This document shows, piece after piece, positions 9,948 to 17,201 of a stretch of 64,000 nt of DNA (position 1 is its first letter; each line of letters begins with the position of its first letter). The notes under the pieces were generated by a model. That model ran no database searches. It had not been told where the DNA came from and worked only from the letters and a program-made list of their open reading frames with translations. Source of the stretch: a virus. Location: positions 1 through 64,000 of the IMG/VR virus record IMGVR_UViG_3300005253_000487; one strand, 5' to 3'. The position numbers were made by a program, and so were the translations under genes.

Positions 9948-9966
9948 CTTTGCCTCCTCGTAAAGT

Positions 9967-10040
9967 GTGGGTTGCCTCATCAGTGCATGGGTACCCAACC
10001 CATGCAGACCGGACACCAAGCGGTGCCCGGTTTCGGCTAG
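9967..10040 (-). ncRNA. Type II hammerhead ribozyme 1
   Basis: GCC-GAAA-stem III-GUC^ (cut 10007/10006)-UGCAUGGG/CCCAUGCA stem I-CUGAUGA-GGC; loop UGGGU can pair with 3' ACCCA. Confidence 0.93.
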
Positions 10041-10312
10041 CCGCGTAGTTCTTGCAGCTCTTGGATAGTTGGTATGTCTTCATCCCAACAACCAATGATG
10101 TTTTCGTCAGTGAAGCCTGCTGCCATCATGCTGACGAATAGACGCTTACGATTCTCTGGTGTTGGATCCTTCATATACCTTTCTAGCTCTACCATCATTG
10201 CGTCATCTGGTGCGGCGATGGCATTACCTAACGCCACTCCGAATGCGTAAGGAGTACGCTTGTGTGGGTGAGCAATCTGCTCCCGTACAATCTCCTCCGG
10301 CGTGTTTGCCAT
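10037..10312 (-). CDS. Hypothetical protein
   Basis: 91 aa, starts 1 nt after upstream stop; its UAG lies in the 5' end of ribozyme 1. Confidence 0.7.
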   Translation of the reverse strand: MANTPEEIVREQIAHPHKRTPYAFGVALGNAIAAPDDAMMVELERYMKDPTPENRKRLFVSMMAAGFTDENIIGCWDEDIPTIQELQELRG

Positions 10313-10313
10313 G

Positions 10314-11216
10314 TCAAGCTCCCTTCTTGGCAGGCTTCTTCTTCGGCGGAGTGTAGACGCCCTTCATGCTTGCCAAGATGGCGTCGGCCTTGCGTGCGGT
10401 GTCCTTGCGGAACTTCTCATCATCACGCAACGACTCCACGTCCAGGGTCGACAGGTCCAGTAGCACCTGCTTCCGTGCCTTCTCCAGCTTCGCGTCCCCG
10501 GTGAGGTTAAGGCGGCCAATGATCTCCGCCATCTCACCGACGCGTGCTATCATTGTCGGCCGCAGATACTTCCCATCACCCAACTTGGTCCGCAGGTCTG
10601 TCACTGTGTCGCCCAACCGCTGCCACACATCGCCCATGGCGTCTGCGACTGCCTGCTTGACTCTGTCTTCCACTCCACGTGTCATGGCCTTTAACTGCTC
10701 CTTGGGTAGAGTGACTCGAAAGTCATCCCCGGAAGGAACAGGACCGTACTGGATAGTGAAGTGGAACTTAGTCCGGACCTGGCTTGTGGTGGGGTAGTCT
10801 GAACGTTTATACATCTGCCCCAACCGTTCCTCTGCTGTCCGTACGAGCGTTGGATAGTCCCTGAGGAACTTCTCCAGCGCCGTCTCATACCTGGTCTGCA
10901 CTGTCCGCATCGCTTCGACATACTCGAAGTAATTGGCAGTAGGTAAGAGACGCCAGCCCGCGTCCTCCCAGGGCAAGGTATGTTTGTAGTGCGTTACCCT
11001 TGCGACCTGAGTGGCGTTGACGAGCATCGAGTGTGACGGAGCGTCGCCCCCGAACAGTCGTTTGTGGTAGCGTCCTGCACGATCGTTCTTGGCCATCTCC
11101 GTATTCACTTTGTCGGTGACCTCTGCGTCGTGCTTCCGGGCGCTCCACAAGCCGATCCACACGTTGACGAGCATTGCTCGCCCCAAGATAGATGTGGACT
11201 TCTTTGTTGTGGTCAT
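10314..11216 (-). CDS. DUF3150-like phage protein (commonly adjacent to AAA/VWA pairs)
   Basis: 300 aa, MLVNVWIGLWSARKHD...TLPW...RLLP...YP pattern; gene context. Confidence 0.6.
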   Translation of the reverse strand: MTTTKKSTSILGRAMLVNVWIGLWSARKHDAEVTDKVNTEMAKNDRAGRYHKRLFGGDAPSHSMLVNATQVARVTHYKHTLPWEDAGWRLLPTANYFEYVEAMRTVQTRYETALEKFLRDYPTLVRTAEERLGQMYKRSDYPTTSQVRTKFHFTIQYGPVPSGDDFRVTLPKEQLKAMTRGVEDRVKQAVADAMGDVWQRLGDTVTDLRTKLGDGKYLRPTMIARVGEMAEIIGRLNLTGDAKLEKARKQVLLDLSTLDVESLRDDEKFRKDTARKADAILASMKGVYTPPKKKPAKKGA

Positions 11217-11240
11217 GCTTGCCTCCTTGTGTAGTTCAGT

Positions 11241-11313
11241 GTGGGTTGCCTCATCAGTACGTGGGTTCCCATTCCACGTAGACCGCCCACGACGTGTGGG
11301 CGGTTTCGGCTAC
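11241..11313 (-). ncRNA. Type II hammerhead ribozyme 2
   Basis: GCC GAAA CCGCCCAC..GUGGGCG GUC^ UACGUGG..CCACGUA CUGAUGA GGC; cut 11281/11280. Confidence 0.93.
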
Positions 11314-11486
11314 CTCGCAATCATCTCCGCTTCCATCTTCTTCATGGCGTCGCTAAGTTGTTCCCACCAAGAACGTATTCCAAGGTGAGGGTCGCCAGTT
11401 AACTGGACGATGGTTGATGCGATAGCATGAATGCGTTTGACTTGGGCTTCCTGGTCCTGTAAAGACCATTGCTCTCGCCCAGCCAT
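11310..11486 (-). CDS. 58-aa hypothetical protein (absent from ORF track)
   Basis: TAATG overlap with AAA stop; MAGREQWSLQDQ...EMIAR then UAG within ribozyme 2. Confidence 0.65.
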   Translation of the reverse strand: MAGREQWSLQDQEAQVKRIHAIASTIVQLTGDPHLGIRSWWEQLSDAMKKMEAEMIAR

Positions 11487-12514
11487 TACGCCGTACCGGA
11501 GATGAGCTGTCCAAGCTCACCGGACATCAATCTGACAAACTCCGGGGTGTTAACCAACTCCGGGTTGTTGCGTTCCGCATCCTTGATCAACAGTGCAGCG
11601 AATTCGCCGTGTCCTTCCTCGACGAGCCTCTCGGCGTAACGCGCCACGCGGCCAAAGTTCTGCTCGTTGGCCTTGATGGCGAGCCCTGTCACTGTAGCAT
11701 ACAACGCTGACAGGTCTGTCGGGATGTCCTGTCCATCCGGATTGATTAAGATGGCGTCGATGCTGGGTAGCTGACGGAACATCCGTAAGAAGGCGCGCAA
11801 CTCTACCGAGGCGCCTTCACCTACGGCGCCCGCTAGTGCTTCACCTTCCAGTGTGTCAGGTAGCCCAAGCTCCAGGACGTGTCCAGCGTTGCTCCAGGTG
11901 CGCGGTAGCGGGCAGTTCGTCATGTCCGCTGTCGGTGTGAACTGGCACAGCAACTCTGGGCGGAACCGAAGGAATGCAATCAGCTCCGGCGGGATGTGCG
12001 TTTGCGTGAACGCCCATTGACACCAGTCGTCCAAGTCCTCAACCAACTCTACGATGGATATGAACCTACTCTTCACGGGCTCCAGTATCCCACTGACGTT
12101 CGCACGGTCCGTGCGCCGGTTCGTTGCTGCAATGAACGACACTACATCGGGCAGCCTGTGCCCGTTGATTTCACGCGCCAAGATTAACTGCATCTTGGCC
12201 GCCTGTACGGCGCCCGGTGCTTGACCAAGATCGTCCAGGAACCATACCGTGTCTACTGTTGCGGCAAGTGCTTCAGCGAACTGCCCGAACGGTAGGAACT
12301 GAGCGGTCTTCTTGTCCGCCGACGGCCAAGGAAGCCCCTTGGAGTCCGTCGGATCTTCCACCGCGGGGTGCGACAGTATCATCCGCGCACCTGCGGTGTC
12401 ACATGCCTGTGCCACTACGTCACTCTTACCTACGCCAGGCTTCCCAGTGATTAGCACTGGGTGACGCTTTGGAATGGCGAGTGCGAGGAACATGGCCAGT
12501 TGTGATGGTTTCAT
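11486..12514 (-). CDS. MoxR/CbbQ-like AAA+ ATPase
   Basis: GKPGVGKS Walker A, WFLDDL Walker B, AATNR, SRF, PRTW; start at ATG 12514 behind GGAGG. Confidence 0.9.
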   Translation of the reverse strand: MKPSQLAMFLALAIPKRHPVLITGKPGVGKSDVVAQACDTAGARMILSHPAVEDPTDSKGLPWPSADKKTAQFLPFGQFAEALAATVDTVWFLDDLGQAPGAVQAAKMQLILAREINGHRLPDVVSFIAATNRRTDRANVSGILEPVKSRFISIVELVEDLDDWCQWAFTQTHIPPELIAFLRFRPELLCQFTPTADMTNCPLPRTWSNAGHVLELGLPDTLEGEALAGAVGEGASVELRAFLRMFRQLPSIDAILINPDGQDIPTDLSALYATVTGLAIKANEQNFGRVARYAERLVEEGHGEFAALLIKDAERNNPELVNTPEFVRLMSGELGQLISGTA

Positions 12515-12533
12515 CTTTGCCTCCTTGTAGTGT

Positions 12534-12606
12534 GTGGGTTGCCTCATCAGTACGTGGATTCCCATTCCACGCAGACCGGATGCACAGTGCATCCGGTTTC
12601 GGCTAC
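12534..12606 (-). ncRNA. Type II hammerhead ribozyme 3
   Basis: Intact core; stem III CCGGAUGCAC/GUGCAUCCGG; cut 12574/12573. Confidence 0.93.
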
Positions 12607-13500
12607 TTACTTTGGTGGCCACATGTACGTGAACTCCGGGCGTCCATACCACGTGACGTAGTGTCCGAGGGCGTCCTCGATGTTCTTGCTTCGTGGTTTG
12701 GACATGCCGTCGTTGTTACGGAACCACCTCCAGAATTCAATCTTCCAATCCCACCATATCGAATCCTGTGGCGTGCACAGGTCGTCCAGGGTGACCTCAT
12801 ACTCATGCCCGTCTCGCCGGCACCGCATGAACTTCTTGCGCTCCGCGGGTGGGAGGCTAAGGAACATGAGCGACTGTTGCATACCGAAGAACAACTGGCC
12901 GCGCATTACATCCTCGTTCCAACACCTGGGTATCTCTTCCACAATGTCCTCGGACAACGTTAGCAGTGGGCAGACGGTGTGGAAGAATGTATCCTCACTA
13001 TCGCTTTGCCAGATGTCGTAGAACGCCATGTCAAACGTACCGGGTGTTCTGTCCTTGAGGTATTCGAATAGGTCCGCACAGACTACAGTGATCTTCCCAT
13101 CGTCATCAGGCAGATGTTGGTTGACTAGCTTGATGACCTCTGATGAGATCTCTACGACGGTGACCTGCTCCACGTCTGGGTTGGCTGCTAGGTTTGCCGC
13201 AGCATAGCCTAGCCCCAGTCCACCAACCAACACCGTGCCGTAATAGCCCTCGAGAATGTTGTTGGCTTGCGCTTGTTCCACGGGCTCGTCTGTCATCCAC
13301 ACCCCTTGGTCCTCTTGGACTAGTTGGTGGAAGCGCACCCGCTTGTCAAATTTGACAGCCTTACTCTGCTGGCCAAAGAGTGCCGTGCGTGCGGTGGCGG
13401 TGTGGAATTTGTGTCCCACCTTGAAGTGAAGATGCTTGATGCTGTAAGCACCTTCCACCCCTTCAGGGATGTCGAGGACGGGCCAATACTTCTGTTTCAT
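12607..13500 (-). CDS. Class I SAM-dependent methyltransferase (spermidine-synthase-like fold)
   Basis: VLVGGLGLG, VTVVEIS, ADLFEY, FDMAFYDIW. Confidence 0.8.
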   Translation of the reverse strand: MKQKYWPVLDIPEGVEGAYSIKHLHFKVGHKFHTATARTALFGQQSKAVKFDKRVRFHQLVQEDQGVWMTDEPVEQAQANNILEGYYGTVLVGGLGLGYAAANLAANPDVEQVTVVEISSEVIKLVNQHLPDDDGKITVVCADLFEYLKDRTPGTFDMAFYDIWQSDSEDTFFHTVCPLLTLSEDIVEEIPRCWNEDVMRGQLFFGMQQSLMFLSLPPAERKKFMRCRRDGHEYEVTLDDLCTPQDSIWWDWKIEFWRWFRNNDGMSKPRSKNIEDALGHYVTWYGRPEFTYMWPPK

Positions 13501-13520
13501 TGTTGCCTCCCTGTAGTGTG

Positions 13521-13593
13521 TTGGGTTGCCTCATCAGTACGTGGATACCCATTCCACGTAAACCGCCCATGGAGTGTGGACGGTTTCGGCTGC
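13521..13593 (-). ncRNA. Type II hammerhead ribozyme 4 (GUU site)
   Basis: Intact core; cleavage triplet GUU fits NUH; cut 13561/13560. Confidence 0.9.
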
Positions 13594-14436
13594 CTACTTC
13601 TTCCGGCGCGTGCTTTTCTTCTTCCGCCGCTTGTCCGCAGTGGGCGTGGCCTTCCTACGTGTCACCTTCTTCTCTTGGCGTGGTGCTGCGGCCGTGTGTT
13701 CTGTGACGTGCCCATCGCTATTGTTCTGGGCTACGACGCGTGCCCGCTCACCCTGTGCTTGCACGCGTGCTTCTTTGCGTGCTGCCCGTTCCTTAGCACT
13801 TGTCTCCCGTCGGCGCCAGCGTGAGCGCCCCAGGTCTGGGAAACGTACTGTGTGGTCTACGATCAAGTCCGCCCGCTCGTTGGCTTGAGCACGCACATAC
13901 TCCACACCTTCTGGATCAATTACAACGTCGTGTGACTGACCATGTACGTCCATCGTTGCGCCACTCCAACCCTCAGTGCAGCGGCTGGATGTATTGACGG
14001 GAACGTCTGCGTCACTAACCTGCGGAATGCCAGCCGCGCGCTGTGGACCCAACCTCTGTTCCAGTAACGCGAAGTAGGCTTCCTTACTACCTAGCACCAC
14101 GAAGAGTGCCTCACGGAGTGGACGGTTGCTGCTGAACCCTAAGCGGTCGCGCTCAGCACCCATGGTCGTCTCTCCCGCTTGTAGACGGGGGAGGACTTCG
14201 CGTGCTTCCTGCAAGAGCGTCTCATCAAGTTGCTTACCGCCTTTGGGCTTCGCAGCTTTCTTCTTGTCTGCCTTCGCCGTGTCATTGACCCGCTTGTCCG
14301 CGTCCGCCTTCGCTGTGTCATTGACCCGCTTATCCGCCTTAGCTTGCGCGGACTTAGCGGGCGCCTTCTTCTTCCGTTTAGGGAAGGCGTTCTTGGCTGT
14401 AGCTTTCTTAGTACTCTTTCTCGGTCTTGCCATCAT
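13594..14436 (-). CDS. Lys/Arg/Ala-rich putative nucleic-acid-binding protein
   Basis: Histone-H1-like termini; duplicated ADKRVNDTAKAD. Confidence 0.7.
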   Translation of the reverse strand: MMARPRKSTKKATAKNAFPKRKKKAPAKSAQAKADKRVNDTAKADADKRVNDTAKADKKKAAKPKGGKQLDETLLQEAREVLPRLQAGETTMGAERDRLGFSSNRPLREALFVVLGSKEAYFALLEQRLGPQRAAGIPQVSDADVPVNTSSRCTEGWSGATMDVHGQSHDVVIDPEGVEYVRAQANERADLIVDHTVRFPDLGRSRWRRRETSAKERAARKEARVQAQGERARVVAQNNSDGHVTEHTAAAPRQEKKVTRRKATPTADKRRKKKSTRRKK

Positions 14437-14451
14437 TGCCTCCTTGTGTTT

Positions 14452-14523
14452 GTGGGTTGCCTCATCAGTACGTGGATACCCATTCCACGCAGACCATCCA
14501 CTCCGGTGGATGGTTTCAGCTAC
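14452..14523 (-). ncRNA. Type II hammerhead ribozyme 5
   Basis: Intact core; stem III CCAUCCAC/GUGGAUGG; G-U at base of stem II; cut 14492/14491. Confidence 0.9.
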
Positions 14524-14525
14524 TA

Positions 14526-14843
14526 CTACCTAGGTGGTGCGTCGACCGTCCGTCGGTACGTCCCTTCGCACAGGTAGCTTGAGTGCGAGATGCGCTGGAG
14601 CCTCAGCCGCAGTGCCTCAACGTCCTTGCACGCCAGCAACAGTTCTAGATCCTTTGCCGTCATGCATTGTGCAAGGACGCGAGCACCAATGCGGACATCC
14701 AGTAAGTCTACGTCTTCCGCCCGTGCCAACTTGCCGTCCGTGAAGCAATGGATGTTCCCGGTGCTGTGTTCCAGGATGCGTCCAATCATCTTCACGTACC
14801 TGTTCTTGACGATGACGACATCGCCTTCTTCGAAGACGCGCAT
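14526..14843 (-). CDS. Hypothetical protein
   Basis: TGATG overlap start MRVFEEGDVVIV; ends TAG TAG TAG running into ribozyme 5. Confidence 0.65.
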   Translation of the reverse strand: MRVFEEGDVVIVKNRYVKMIGRILEHSTGNIHCFTDGKLARAEDVDLLDVRIGARVLAQCMTAKDLELLLACKDVEALRLRLQRISHSSYLCEGTYRRTVDAPPR

Positions 14844-15064
14844 CACCCACCACCCTTCGGTCCTTCGGTCTTGCAAGCGCGTCCGCAGAAGATGTGATTG
14901 TCGTGCGCGAGGATTGCCGTACCCGCTGGCAGATTCTTGCCACACGCTGCACACTTGCGATCGACTTGCGCCCGGAACATTGCCTGTCTACGCTCGACTT
15001 CTTCGATGTTCGCTAGGAGCCCGCGTGCTCGCCCGGACTCAGTACCGCTTGTTCGTTTGTTCAT
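14843..15064 (-). CDS. Small zinc-finger-like protein
   Basis: GGAGG RBS; CAACG...FCGRAC. Confidence 0.65.
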   Translation of the reverse strand: MNKRTSGTESGRARGLLANIEEVERRQAMFRAQVDRKCAACGKNLPAGTAILAHDNHIFCGRACKTEGPKGGG

Positions 15065-15080
15065 GTGTGCCTCCTTGTGC

Positions 15081-15158
15081 GTGGGTTGCCTCATCAGTAC
15101 ATGGATTCCCATTCCATGCAGACCGGACAGCGTAACACGGCTGCCCGGTTTCGGCTAC
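15081..15158 (-). ncRNA. Type II hammerhead ribozyme 6
   Basis: Intact core; stem III CCGGGCAGC/GCUGUCCGG; cut 15121/15120. Confidence 0.93.
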
Positions 15159-15697
15159 TACGGTCCGCCTATCTGCGGTCCGCTTATCTGGTGGACGTTC
15201 TGCTCGTGCGCCTGTCGCATGAGTTCTTGCAGCACTTCAATCGTTTCGCTTGCGTGCGTCTCCACCTCGCCCCAGTCGACGTCGACGACCAGTATGTCGA
15301 TGAGGCCCGCAACGCGTTGCTCCGCGTCGTTGACTGTGAGGATGGCCTTGTCCACTTCGTCGGACCCATCGTCCCATTCTGAGAGGATGCTGAAGAGTGT
15401 GTAAAGCTCATCTGGTAGCTCGTCACGCGCCGCAGTGTCCAACTTGTCTGCAAACTTGGCTACCTTGCGGAGCTTGTTGAAGTTTACCGTGCCGTTAGCG
15501 ATGCACGCCTTTTGCACACGGTCCAAAATCTTCTGGTAGGCGTCGCAACTCATCCTCACCGTTGTCGTGGTACAGCCCCCGCTGTCGTCGCACGCTTGTA
15601 TCATGCGCCTGTGTCGCACTATCAGTGCCTGCATCGCACGAATCGTTGCTGCCCGTAGCTTCCTGTTCCGCGCCGGGATCTTCGATGGACGTTTCAT
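15158..15697 (-). CDS. Hypothetical helical protein
   Basis: 179 aa with GGAGG RBS. Confidence 0.7.
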   Translation of the reverse strand: MKRPSKIPARNRKLRAATIRAMQALIVRHRRMIQACDDSGGCTTTTVRMSCDAYQKILDRVQKACIANGTVNFNKLRKVAKFADKLDTAARDELPDELYTLFSILSEWDDGSDEVDKAILTVNDAEQRVAGLIDILVVDVDWGEVETHASETIEVLQELMRQAHEQNVHQISGPQIGGP

Positions 15698-15720
15698 TCT
15701 TGCCTCCCTGTAGTGGTGTT

Positions 15721-15793
15721 GTGGGTTACCTCGTCAGTACGTGGGTACCCAACCCATGCAGACCGGATGCACTGTGCACCCGGTTTCGGCTAC
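15721..15793 (-). ncRNA. Type II hammerhead ribozyme 7
   Basis: Core CUGACGA (variation only at the free N7 position); cut 15761/15760. Confidence 0.92.
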
Positions 15794-16416
15794 TGCCGGT
15801 CCAACGGGTACTGGAACTTCTCCAACACTACTGCCCATGCTGCTGCTGTCTGCTGCTCGATGATGTTGTGCACTGGGCTAGTGGAGTACGAAGGGGAACG
15901 CGTGGCGCGTACAACTTGCTCCAACGCTTCGACGCGGATCTTTTCATTCATCTCTTCCGCTGTGTCCCCATCCTTCCTGAACTGTGCGATGTACTGTAGC
16001 ACACCTCGGCACACGGTACCACTTGCGGCGCGCCTTATCACGTCCATGCTCGAGCCGAACCCGTAAGTCATGTCCGCTTGTGGCGCGTCCACTTGCTCTA
16101 GCAAGCGTGCCGTCCACTTCCGTATCTCCTTCTCACAGTAGCCAACTTCACGCTCCAAGTCTTCCACTCTGTGTACCCACCGCTCTGCTACTGTGGCAAT
16201 GTACTTGAAGTGGAGTTGCGTGCGCGTCTTGTTGTCGAACCCAATGAGATACTGCCCTTCCCCCAGGATCTTCTCTTCCCTGGTGAAGGCTTCCAACAAC
16301 GCCTTCTGTGTTCCATACTGCCACGGCGGATGTAAGTCCACGCGTGCCATGTTGGGTGTGCCGTCCGGCATCGCTTCGGCCTGGACGTCATGCTGCTGGT
16401 GTAATGTGTAACGCAT
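15790..16416 (-). CDS. Hypothetical protein, first gene of the ribozyme operon
   Basis: ATG 16416 behind GGGAGG; 208 aa. Confidence 0.7.
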   Translation of the reverse strand: MRYTLHQQHDVQAEAMPDGTPNMARVDLHPPWQYGTQKALLEAFTREEKILGEGQYLIGFDNKTRTQLHFKYIATVAERWVHRVEDLEREVGYCEKEIRKWTARLLEQVDAPQADMTYGFGSSMDVIRRAASGTVCRGVLQYIAQFRKDGDTAEEMNEKIRVEALEQVVRATRSPSYSTSPVHNIIEQQTAAAWAVVLEKFQYPLDRQ

Positions 16417-16437
16417 TCTTGCCTCCCTGTAGTGTGT

Positions 16438-16530
16438 GTGGGTTGCCTCATCAGTACGTGGGTACCCAACCCACGCAGACGTAACACGCATCCGCTAGGC
16501 AAGCGGTTGAGCGCGTGCTACGTTTCAGCT
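16438..16530 (-). ncRNA. Type II hammerhead ribozyme 8 (leader copy, extended stem III)
   Basis: GCU GAAA CGUAGCACGCG...UGCGUGUUAC GUC^ UGCGUGGG/CCCACGUA CUGAUGA GGC; cut 16478/16477. Confidence 0.92.
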
Positions 16531-17048
16531 TTGAAACTTTACAAGGAGGAGGCATACTAGATGCGCCGCCGTATCCCGTCTGTCTGCAATCTTGTGCCCG
16601 TCGTCCACGTCTCAATACGTACGAGCTGTGAACGCCGTGCACGCCGCAAGCACTTAGCGGAGGGGGTCGGTTGCTGTCGCTGGCTGAACGCCCTTAACGC
16701 GCATCTAGTTTCTGTTCGACTTCCGCGTCCCATTGTTGTGCGTGCTGCACACCCACCTTCCGTCCAGCCACTTAGCACGTCCTCGGGCTCCCGTTCCCTT
16801 AAGCATTCCGCTGGCGCTCTAACTTCCCCGTCCATCCACGCGCTACAACTTCTGTGTACCCCCGCGCTGACTGTGCTGTCTGCGTCGTCTATGGATCCGG
16901 GGTCGCAGTTTCTAACTGCATCGGCAATGCTGCCATCCCCGTAGTGCGCGTCCACGTAGCGCACCCTCCAACATCCACCCCTAACTACATGCTACTACAC
17001 CTACACTTACAATCTACGACACGCAACCCAAGGACGCAAGTGTTTTGC

Positions 17049-17201
17049 AAGTGCTTATATAGCAACCACTTACAGCGTCGCTCCCGTTGGATCGGTCGAA
17101 AAAGGGGAGCTTTTAAGCGATGCTATAAGTGCTTATATAGCAACCACTTAGCTATGCTTTACTCAGGGAAGGCACGTAAGTCCTTTGTTTCGTCCCATTT
17201 A
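17049..17201. repeat. Three (T)AAGT-N15-AYTTA pseudo-palindromes; two are identical 24-mers
   Basis: AAGTGCTTATATAGCAACCACTTA at 17049-17072 and 17127-17150; TAAGT-N15-ATTTA at 17177-17201. Confidence 0.75.

Follow-up and report, generated by a model that had tools for sequence, protein, structure and literature searches.

Hammerhead ribozymes that are clustered in phage genomes cleave in vitro, and also in vivo in an Agrobacterium tumefaciens construct (Perreault et al., 2011; PMC3088659). In Desulfovibrio vulgaris cells, cleavage has been shown for type II hammerheads that lie close to phage-like genes (PMC8782182). The function proposed in the field is the processing of polycistronic transcripts (PMC6765202), and the purpose of bacterial and phage hammerheads has been in question since 2011. 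Here, we describe a window of 64,000 nucleotides, bases 1-64000 of the 88-kb virus record IMGVR_UViG_3300005253_000487 (estimated to be 83% complete), in which a series of gene cassettes is separated by eight type II hammerheads, all on the minus strand at 9966-16530. This array is a large and regular new example of the layout known since 2011. It holds eight intact ribozymes in 6.5 kb, all in an identical frame of stop codon, ribozyme and ribosome-binding site, and comparison with related contigs supports gain, loss and reordering of the cassettes at the DNA level.

An Rfam search of the window gave eight matches to Hammerhead_II (RF02276) in this region, and Rfam found no further type II hammerheads anywhere in the 88-kb record. 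Six of the eight copies exceed the gathering threshold of 37 bits, with scores of 41.7-51.4, and the remaining two, HH7 and HH8, fall slightly under it. The low score of HH7 is explained by a stem I mismatch and a GGU strand, and that of HH8 by a long insertion in stem III. The copies, from the first of the array to the last, are as follows.

16437-16530, minus strand: HH8, the array's first copy; 32.8 bits; full core; 12-bp stem III; predicted cleavage 16478/16477
15720-15791, minus strand: HH7; 33.3 bits; CUGACGA and a GGU stem II strand; predicted cleavage 15761/15760
15080-15156, minus strand: HH6; 41.8 bits; predicted cleavage 15121/15120
14451-14521, minus strand: HH5; 44.8 bits; GCU stem II strand; predicted cleavage 14492/14491
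13520-13591, minus strand: HH4; 48.9 bits; U at position 17; predicted cleavage 13561/13560
12533-12604, minus strand: HH3; 41.7 bits; predicted cleavage 12574/12573
11240-11311, minus strand: HH2; 51.4 bits; predicted cleavage 11281/11280
9966-10038, minus strand: HH1, the array's last copy; 45.5 bits; predicted cleavage 10007/10006

All eight copies contain CUGA(U/C)GA, GAAA and the A15.1-U16.1 pair that closes stem III, and pair 1.1-2.1 is U-A throughout. Position 17 is C in seven copies and U in HH4. The type II topology is satisfied, with stems I and III closed by loops and stem II open. Stem II has 3 bp, formed by GCC/GGC in five copies, with GCU in HH5 and HH8 and GGU in HH7. HH8 combines a GCU/GGC stem II with a long stem III that contains an inner hairpin, and stem I of HH7 has one A·C mismatch. 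A pseudoknot can form between UGGG in loop I and CCCA in the tail; its four pairs are invariant in the seven aligned copies and thus give no covariation signal. Within the window, 98% of the cells in stems I and III pair and eight pairs have changed on both sides, a result that none of 500 shuffles equaled. In folding calculations, the minimum-energy structure of HH1-HH6 (six of the eight) is the hammerhead junction. From their sequences, the eight copies are type II hammerheads and are predicted to be catalytic.

HH7 (15720-15791) and HH8 (16437-16530) have two UGGG motifs in the stem I loop. In their minimum-energy fold, the tail pairs with the 5' strand of stem I and the junction is not formed.

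By sequence reading, the predicted scissile bond lies 3' of C17, and the first nucleotides of the 3' products would be 16477, 15760, 15120, 14491, 13560, 12573, 11280 and 10006. The initial annotation had delimited a set of ribozyme-bounded cassettes at 10007-16477. These limits correspond to cleavage at HH1 and at HH8, respectively, and enclose exactly the seven internal fragments, of 717, 640, 629, 931, 987, 1293 and 1274 nt. As that annotation described, each fragment begins with the 3' half of one hammerhead and ends with the 5' half of the next, and the stem II strands are interchangeable: every chimeric combination of 5' and 3' strands gives three standard or wobble pairs.

The junctions share one order of parts. 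The stop codon (usually UAG) is followed by GCC or GCU, GAAA, the variable stem III hairpin and GU plus C or U, and then by the stem I hairpin, CUGA(U/C)GA, GGC or GGU, the tail AACCCA, an A/C-rich spacer, AGGAGGCA and the start codon. Each element starts 0-6 nt past the upstream stop codon or overlaps it, and in several copies the UAG stop supplies the outer base of stem II. The element ends 15-25 nt upstream of the next start codon, before the uniform ribosome-binding site AGGAGGCA. The near-identical direct repeats that had been noticed at the cassette borders can be defined as the 39-nt 3' half of the element, from stem I through CUGAUGAGGCAACCCA, which recurs at every border with a pairwise identity of 82-97%; exact shared runs are 11-37 nt long (median 20). 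The genes between the ribozymes, and the first gene past them, are as follows.

15790-16416, minus strand: cassette 7, after HH8; g8, 208 aa, no family match
15158-15697, minus strand: cassette 6, after HH7; g7, 179 aa, an orphan without a homolog in any fetched locus
14526-15064, minus strand: cassette 5, after HH6; two overlapping small genes, g6a (14843-15064; 73 aa, contains a Cys pair) and g6b (14526-14846)
13594-14433, minus strand: cassette 4, after HH5; g5, 279 aa, Lys-rich, family F1
12607-13500, minus strand: cassette 3, after HH4; g4, S-adenosylmethionine (SAM) methyltransferase-like, 297 aa (phrog_15480, 3.9e-17)
11310-12514, minus strand: cassette 2, after HH3; g3a (11486-12514), a MoxR-like AAA ATPase (phrog_1297, 1e-66), and g3b (11310-11486), 58 aa
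10037-11216, minus strand: cassette 1, after HH2; g2a (10314-11216), DUF3150 (PF11348), and g2b (10037-10312), 91 aa
8670-9947, minus strand: g1, the first gene past the array, after HH1; DUF2201 metallopeptidase plus VWA-like domain, 425 aa

The cassettes were compared with those of related contigs. A 19-nt core-and-tail motif matched 41 metagenome contigs, many of them several times, and a covariance model was built from seven window copies. Thirty of the 41 contigs carry junction elements recognized by the model, 84 in all. An exact core-and-tail 16-mer occurs in 19 IMG/VR contigs, once in each; ten of these were scanned with Rfam, and a hammerhead was found only in L005 and L012. In the motif contigs together with these two, the model found 92 elements, up to eight of them in 4.8 kb. 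Across the 92, 95% of the cells in stems I and III are paired and 17 of 17 pairs have changed on both sides; none of 500 shuffles equaled the observed value, and slid controls gave 32-45% paired. The best relatives are known as fragments; L107, for example, was seen as 1.7 kb of a 90.8-kb contig. The 30 array contigs were oriented on the ribozyme strand and the open reading frames (ORFs) between the elements were clustered, which gives the following orders.

L127: element, g4, element, g3a; the window order, at 74% nucleotide identity
L112: element, g3a, element, g2a, element, small ORF, element, g1; one junction more than in the window
L136: g5, element, g3a; the methyltransferase cassette is missing
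L123: g5, element, 59-aa ORF, element, g3a; another cassette replaces g4
L108: g2a, element, ORF, element, g4; the methyltransferase lies elsewhere, downstream of the DUF3150 gene
L103: g8, element, g5; without g7 and g6
L140: g5, element, g2a; without g4 and g3a between them
L101: g1, then an element; g1 of the window has none after it

L127 carries a canonical hammerhead at the place of HH3, and the extra element of L112 separates the g2a homolog from the small ORF that follows it. The most widespread cassette is that of g5 (family F1), with 12 members and variable neighbors, and homologs of g8 (family F7) are also flanked by junctions in L103, L130 and L138. The comparison of cassette order that the initial annotation had called for thus finds the same ORF families beside different neighbors. 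Some contig pairs have blocks in common at 85-96% identity; of the nine internal ends of these blocks, seven lie in a junction element or within 35 nt of one. Two left ends are no more than 7 nt away from the scissile bond, which separates the variable stem III from the conserved stem I; one boundary lies 5' of the entire ribozyme, and the right boundaries are not resolvable inside the conserved half.

The elements themselves have evolved partly in concert. Stem I identity is 0.70 within contigs and 0.59 between them, a difference that none of 2000 label shuffles equaled, and each lineage has its own compensated stem I variant. HH8 has a distinct form, in which one stem II strand is GCU and the inner hairpin of the long stem III has a CUAGC-type loop. 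This form recurs at the first position of the arrays in L138 (1341-1437), L139 (2044-2136) and L140 (8060-8155; all in oriented coordinates). It has been kept by position in four lineages, with the other copies homogenized within each genome. Taken together, the sequence comparisons support gain, loss and reordering of cassettes at the junction elements and suggest that the junctions are sites of accessory-gene swapping in this phage group. The initial annotation had offered circularization of the cassettes or their shuffling, and it is the shuffling, at the DNA level, that the permuted cassettes and the block ends support. The repeats may cause the exchanges, or may only mark gene borders where recombinants survive.

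We regard as fairly probable a joint explanation, in which cis-acting hammerheads process the operon transcript and insulate its cistrons and the 39-nt repeats route the exchange of cassettes. In this reading, an uncultured tailed phage with a genome of about 100 kb would have a long leftward operon, of which the region is the promoter-proximal 6.5 kb. Each ribozyme would fold and cut co-transcriptionally, and the polycistronic RNA would be converted into seven mRNAs of one or two genes plus the downstream remainder; several hundred nucleotides of leader would also be lost through cleavage at HH8. The 3' product would start flush with the stem I hairpin and bear a 5'-OH, and the 5' product would end one base past the stem III hairpin with a 2',3'-cyclic phosphate. 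The type II topology suits such a role well: stem II is the open helix and the bond to be cut lies between two closed hairpins, so that both new ends would be capped by hairpins and every cistron would receive the same leader. Hairpins at the 5' terminus and non-monophosphorylated ends slow entry of RNase E-type enzymes, and 3' hairpins block exonucleases, so that both cleavage products should be protected. We infer that cleavage occurs in vivo and affects mRNA fate, uncoupling the stability and translation of neighboring genes in the manner of the synthetic RiboJ insulator. Such processing matches the role suggested in the literature. Homologous exchange between the 39-nt repeats, possibly through a RecA-like protein of the phage, would be the likeliest route of cassette change. 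A gene of the RecA/UvsX family lies on the minus strand at 69897-70640 of the record, outside the window (PF00154, 95 bits). It represents the only recombination protein family found among those searched; RecT and ERF families were not found in the record.

Several observations weigh against this explanation. Pair 10.1-11.1 is G-C in six copies, and the G·U that HH5 and HH8 have instead would be doubtful by stricter published criteria. The minimum-energy folds of HH7 and HH8 are competing alternatives, and cleavage of this pair of copies may be slower or conditional. Since only recombinants joined at gene borders survive, breakpoints there are to be expected in every phage mosaic, and the relatives, retrieved through the motif itself, form a biased as well as a small sample. 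About half of the relatives' elements lack the catalytic strand, so that cleavage at a given junction is dispensable, which weakens models with obligatory cleavage or circularization; what is conserved could be of use as a leader or hairpin, or could be no more than a repeat that spreads.

The genes of the array are also found without ribozymes. Among 8000 candidates scored, 2154 are homologs of the g3a ATPase at E<=1e-20, and 80 IMG/VR loci were retrieved with an alignment of ATPase homologs. All or part of the triad of AAA ATPase, DUF3150 and VWA genes is present in 76 of 81 fetched IMG/VR loci, mostly with tight spacing, and a search of 50 whole records of triad-bearing loci found a type II hammerhead in none. 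Ribozymes are therefore not needed for the triad, a further point against the joint explanation. The order of the triad is constant in more than 70 IMG/VR phage contigs (L020-L100 compared), and in L020, the closest ribozyme-free locus, the gaps between its genes are 3-7 nt; in the phage of the window, the ribozymes split a module that is contiguous elsewhere. No homologs of g4-g8 were found near the triad in the 80 IMG/VR loci. ATPase relatives that are 70-72% identical occur on contigs of 90-97 kb (P0002-P0007), and the best ones in isolated phages, N4-like phages among them, are about 30% identical; the whole triad is present at this level of identity in N4-like and other isolated phages. 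A megablast search of the region against 50,697 phage records gave no match.

The elements without a catalytic strand deserve closer description, as they underlie a competing view. In a strict check of the 86 elements outside the window, 38 were canonical, 40 lacked the 5' strand and eight had a mutated CUGAUGA box; the check mis-scores copies with a stem I mismatch, such as HH7. Stem II counts from the 92-element alignment are unreliable, the alignment being model-fitted, and direct inspection of its columns showed the canonical strand in 47 of 92 elements. In the ten contigs that resemble the window most in gene content (L112, L123, L136, L108, L103, L106, L131, L141, L130 and L124), most of the junction elements are without GCC-GAAA. 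What these elements retain is the stem III hairpin, closed by its A-U pair, followed by GUH, stem I and the CUGAUGA box, and then by the pseudoknot tail and the ribosome-binding site. Three other accounts of them were considered and rejected. An Rfam search at E<=0.1 found no other ribozyme class, and only two hammerheads in the ten contigs. A GAAA strand supplied in trans and a conserved alternative 5' motif were both discarded, given that the flanks in place of the lost strand have no consensus and that a strand in trans could be anchored by only 3 bp. Because the replacing sequences share no motif, the strand-less elements are read as decayed hammerheads, which they probably are. Given this decay in the relatives, the intact state of all eight window copies is noteworthy.

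In the competing view, the junction element would be mainly a leader and hairpin module, or a selfish repeat, with catalysis incidental. Stem III would then stabilize the upstream message or pause the polymerase, stem I together with the tail would define the surroundings of the ribosome-binding site, and the element would spread and be homogenized by gene conversion. The loss of GCC-GAAA from about half of the 86 relatives' elements with retention of the rest, the absence of consensus in the replacing flanks, the lack of another ribozyme class in the Rfam search and the homogenization of stem I within genomes are all in its favor. However, all eight window copies keep every catalytic nucleotide, which one would not expect if cleavage were not under selection, catalysis is the only role known for the CUGAUGA box, and the relatives were sampled by that very motif. 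On these grounds this alternative is rather unlikely. The intact and stripped junctions of the sister phages amount to natural 'mutants', from which it could be learned whether cleavage, the leader or the repeat is selected, and they make the locus a good test bed for the question of purpose.

Circularization takes the geometry of the fragments in another direction. The GGC and GCC of a single fragment would rebuild a hammerhead, and the ring would be closed by the reverse reaction or by host RtcB to give a circular mRNA that resists exonucleases and can be translated. RNAs with 5'-OH and 2',3'-cyclic phosphate ends are substrates of RtcB, and in engineered systems RtcB circularizes ribozyme-flanked RNAs; the predicted end chemistry of the fragments matches these substrates, their geometry fits, and every chimeric stem II combination pairs. 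In partition functions of the excised fragments (ViennaRNA), stem II re-forms with a probability of 0.95 in fragment F1, 0.89 in F2 and 0.61 in F4, and the minimum-energy folds of these three show the complete three-way junction. The probability is low in the others, at 0.20 in F5, 0.12 in F3 and about 0 in F6 and F7. Controls that kept both ends and had the interior shuffled (eight for F1; range 0-1) gave means of 0.23 for F1, 0.44 for F2, 0.48 for F4, 0.03 for F5, 0.18 for F3, 0.00 for F6 and 0.22 for F7, and only F1 beats all its controls (0/8 reach it). As the real fragments pair no better than the controls, there is no sign of selection for end pairing. Only stem II could hold the ends of the excised unit together. 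This helix has 3 bp, which can grow to 6-7 pairs in F2 and F4, and it is placed next to the stop codon or overlaps it, some 15-25 nt ahead of the following start codon, where ribosomes should open it. The earlier statement that the window shows no reverse transcriptase, integrase or RtcB holds for the whole 88-kb record, in which searches found no RtcB, RNA_ligase family member, RVT_1 or tyrosine integrase, with the reservation that the record is 83% complete and that a host could supply such enzymes in trans. Many of the relatives' junctions are catalytically dead, and circles are thus not obligatory. Circular or spliced products were considered for phage hammerhead clusters by Perreault et al. 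(2011; PMC3088659), who failed to detect circles from them, and in later reviews (including PMC6765202) transcript processing is still a suggestion and no bacterial hammerhead circles are reported. Circular mRNAs would be important if true, but the present analysis gives them no support, the fit being one of geometry that controls equal, and we consider them improbable.

Two further schemes add heritable movement to such RNAs. In a mobile 'ribozyme integron', units would be closed or joined in trans by RtcB or the reverse reaction, and a reverse transcriptase acting in trans would make shuffling at the scissile bond heritable; this we hold to be very improbable. In a retrozyme-like cycle, cleaved and circularized cassette RNAs would be reverse transcribed and reinserted. 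The permutation of cassettes among relatives and the two left block ends within 7 nt of a cleavage site are compatible with RNA mobility, but one block boundary is 5' of a whole ribozyme, the right boundaries are not resolvable in the conserved half, searches of the record found no reverse transcriptase or integrase, and the cassettes are coding genes with ribosome-binding sites rather than non-coding repeats. The same data have a simpler explanation in homologous exchange of DNA, for which a RecA-like protein is present, and RNA mobility is extremely improbable.

The surroundings of the array are consistent with the operon assumed for transcript processing and insulation. The array genes are co-oriented and tightly packed, the operon runs on leftwards past g1, and no hammerhead lies 3' of g1 in the window. 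In a consensus scan, promoter-like and terminator-like sites in the array were not commoner than in shuffled sequence, and none was at a junction. Upstream of HH8, about 800 nt without conserved coding sequence are followed by divergent plus-strand genes that are common to relatives. The ORFs at 16557-16955 (minus strand) and 16561-16944 (plus strand) were considered as a gene upstream of HH8 and rejected, as neither is conserved in relatives. One repeat pair is located between the array and the divergent genes.

17049-17072 and 17127-17150, no strand assigned: two perfect 24-nt copies, the only two in 88 kb

The copies have inverted AAGTG/CACTT ends that flank TATATA, and the pair is a candidate promoter or operator of the leftward transcript. 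Within the array, g5 contains a 36-nt tandem duplication (14266-14337, 92% identity) that encodes a repeated Lys/Asp-rich peptide.

A further match to the motif, the only one among 185,579 species genomes, was found at bases 1-24 of a contig from a Planctomycetota metagenome-assembled genome (L142, JADFRO010000054.1). The fetched locus covers 8 kb of the 11.9-kb contig, and the match is truncated at its first bases; the contig shares no genes with the phage. This is a weak hint, which may point to the host phylum or to a phage fragment that was binned with the genome.

In RiboJ insulators, a hammerhead placed before the ribosome-binding site removes the upstream context and leaves a defined 5' end that bears a hairpin. 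The window elements share with RiboJ a self-cleaving hammerhead upstream of a ribosome-binding site. They differ from it in being natural, of type II and present at every junction, and in leaving a 3' hairpin on the upstream product as well; for them insulation is a prediction only.

A parallel to the gene swapping exists in T4-type phages, whose PeSL cassettes (Arbiol et al., 2010, PMC2839356; PMC4122927) are likewise short repeated regulatory elements at gene borders. They flank non-essential orphan genes, and recombination between them shuffles modules among related phages (PMC2839356; PMC4122927). However, a PeSL element consists of an early promoter and a terminator stem-loop and acts in transcription, whereas the window element consists of a ribozyme and a ribosome-binding site and would act on RNA; no promoter or terminator signal was found at the window junctions.

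Retrozymes and viroid-like RNAs (PMC4918200, PMC7761336) offer the same unit bounded by two hammerheads, with 5'-OH and 2',3'-cyclic phosphate ends that are substrates of tRNA-ligase or RtcB-type enzymes. These RNAs are non-coding, use type III or type I hammerheads, have rod folds that join their ends and need a reverse transcriptase or RNA replication. In contrast, the window fragments would be mRNAs of 629-1293 nt with type II hammerheads and a 3-bp open stem, and neither a reverse transcriptase nor a ligase is encoded.

The closest likeness is to the prophage clusters of Perreault et al. (2011; PMC3088659), in which several hammerheads, including type II copies with a loop I-tail pseudoknot, lie on either side of single genes or short gene blocks that differ from case to case, and for which the processing of long phage transcripts is likewise the role proposed. 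Compared with these clusters, the window array is longer and more regular, with eight copies, belongs to an uncultured phage of about 100 kb, and splits the widely conserved AAA-DUF3150-VWA triad. In addition, the comparison with relatives provides evidence that cassettes are exchanged and that the catalytic strand has decayed in sister lineages.

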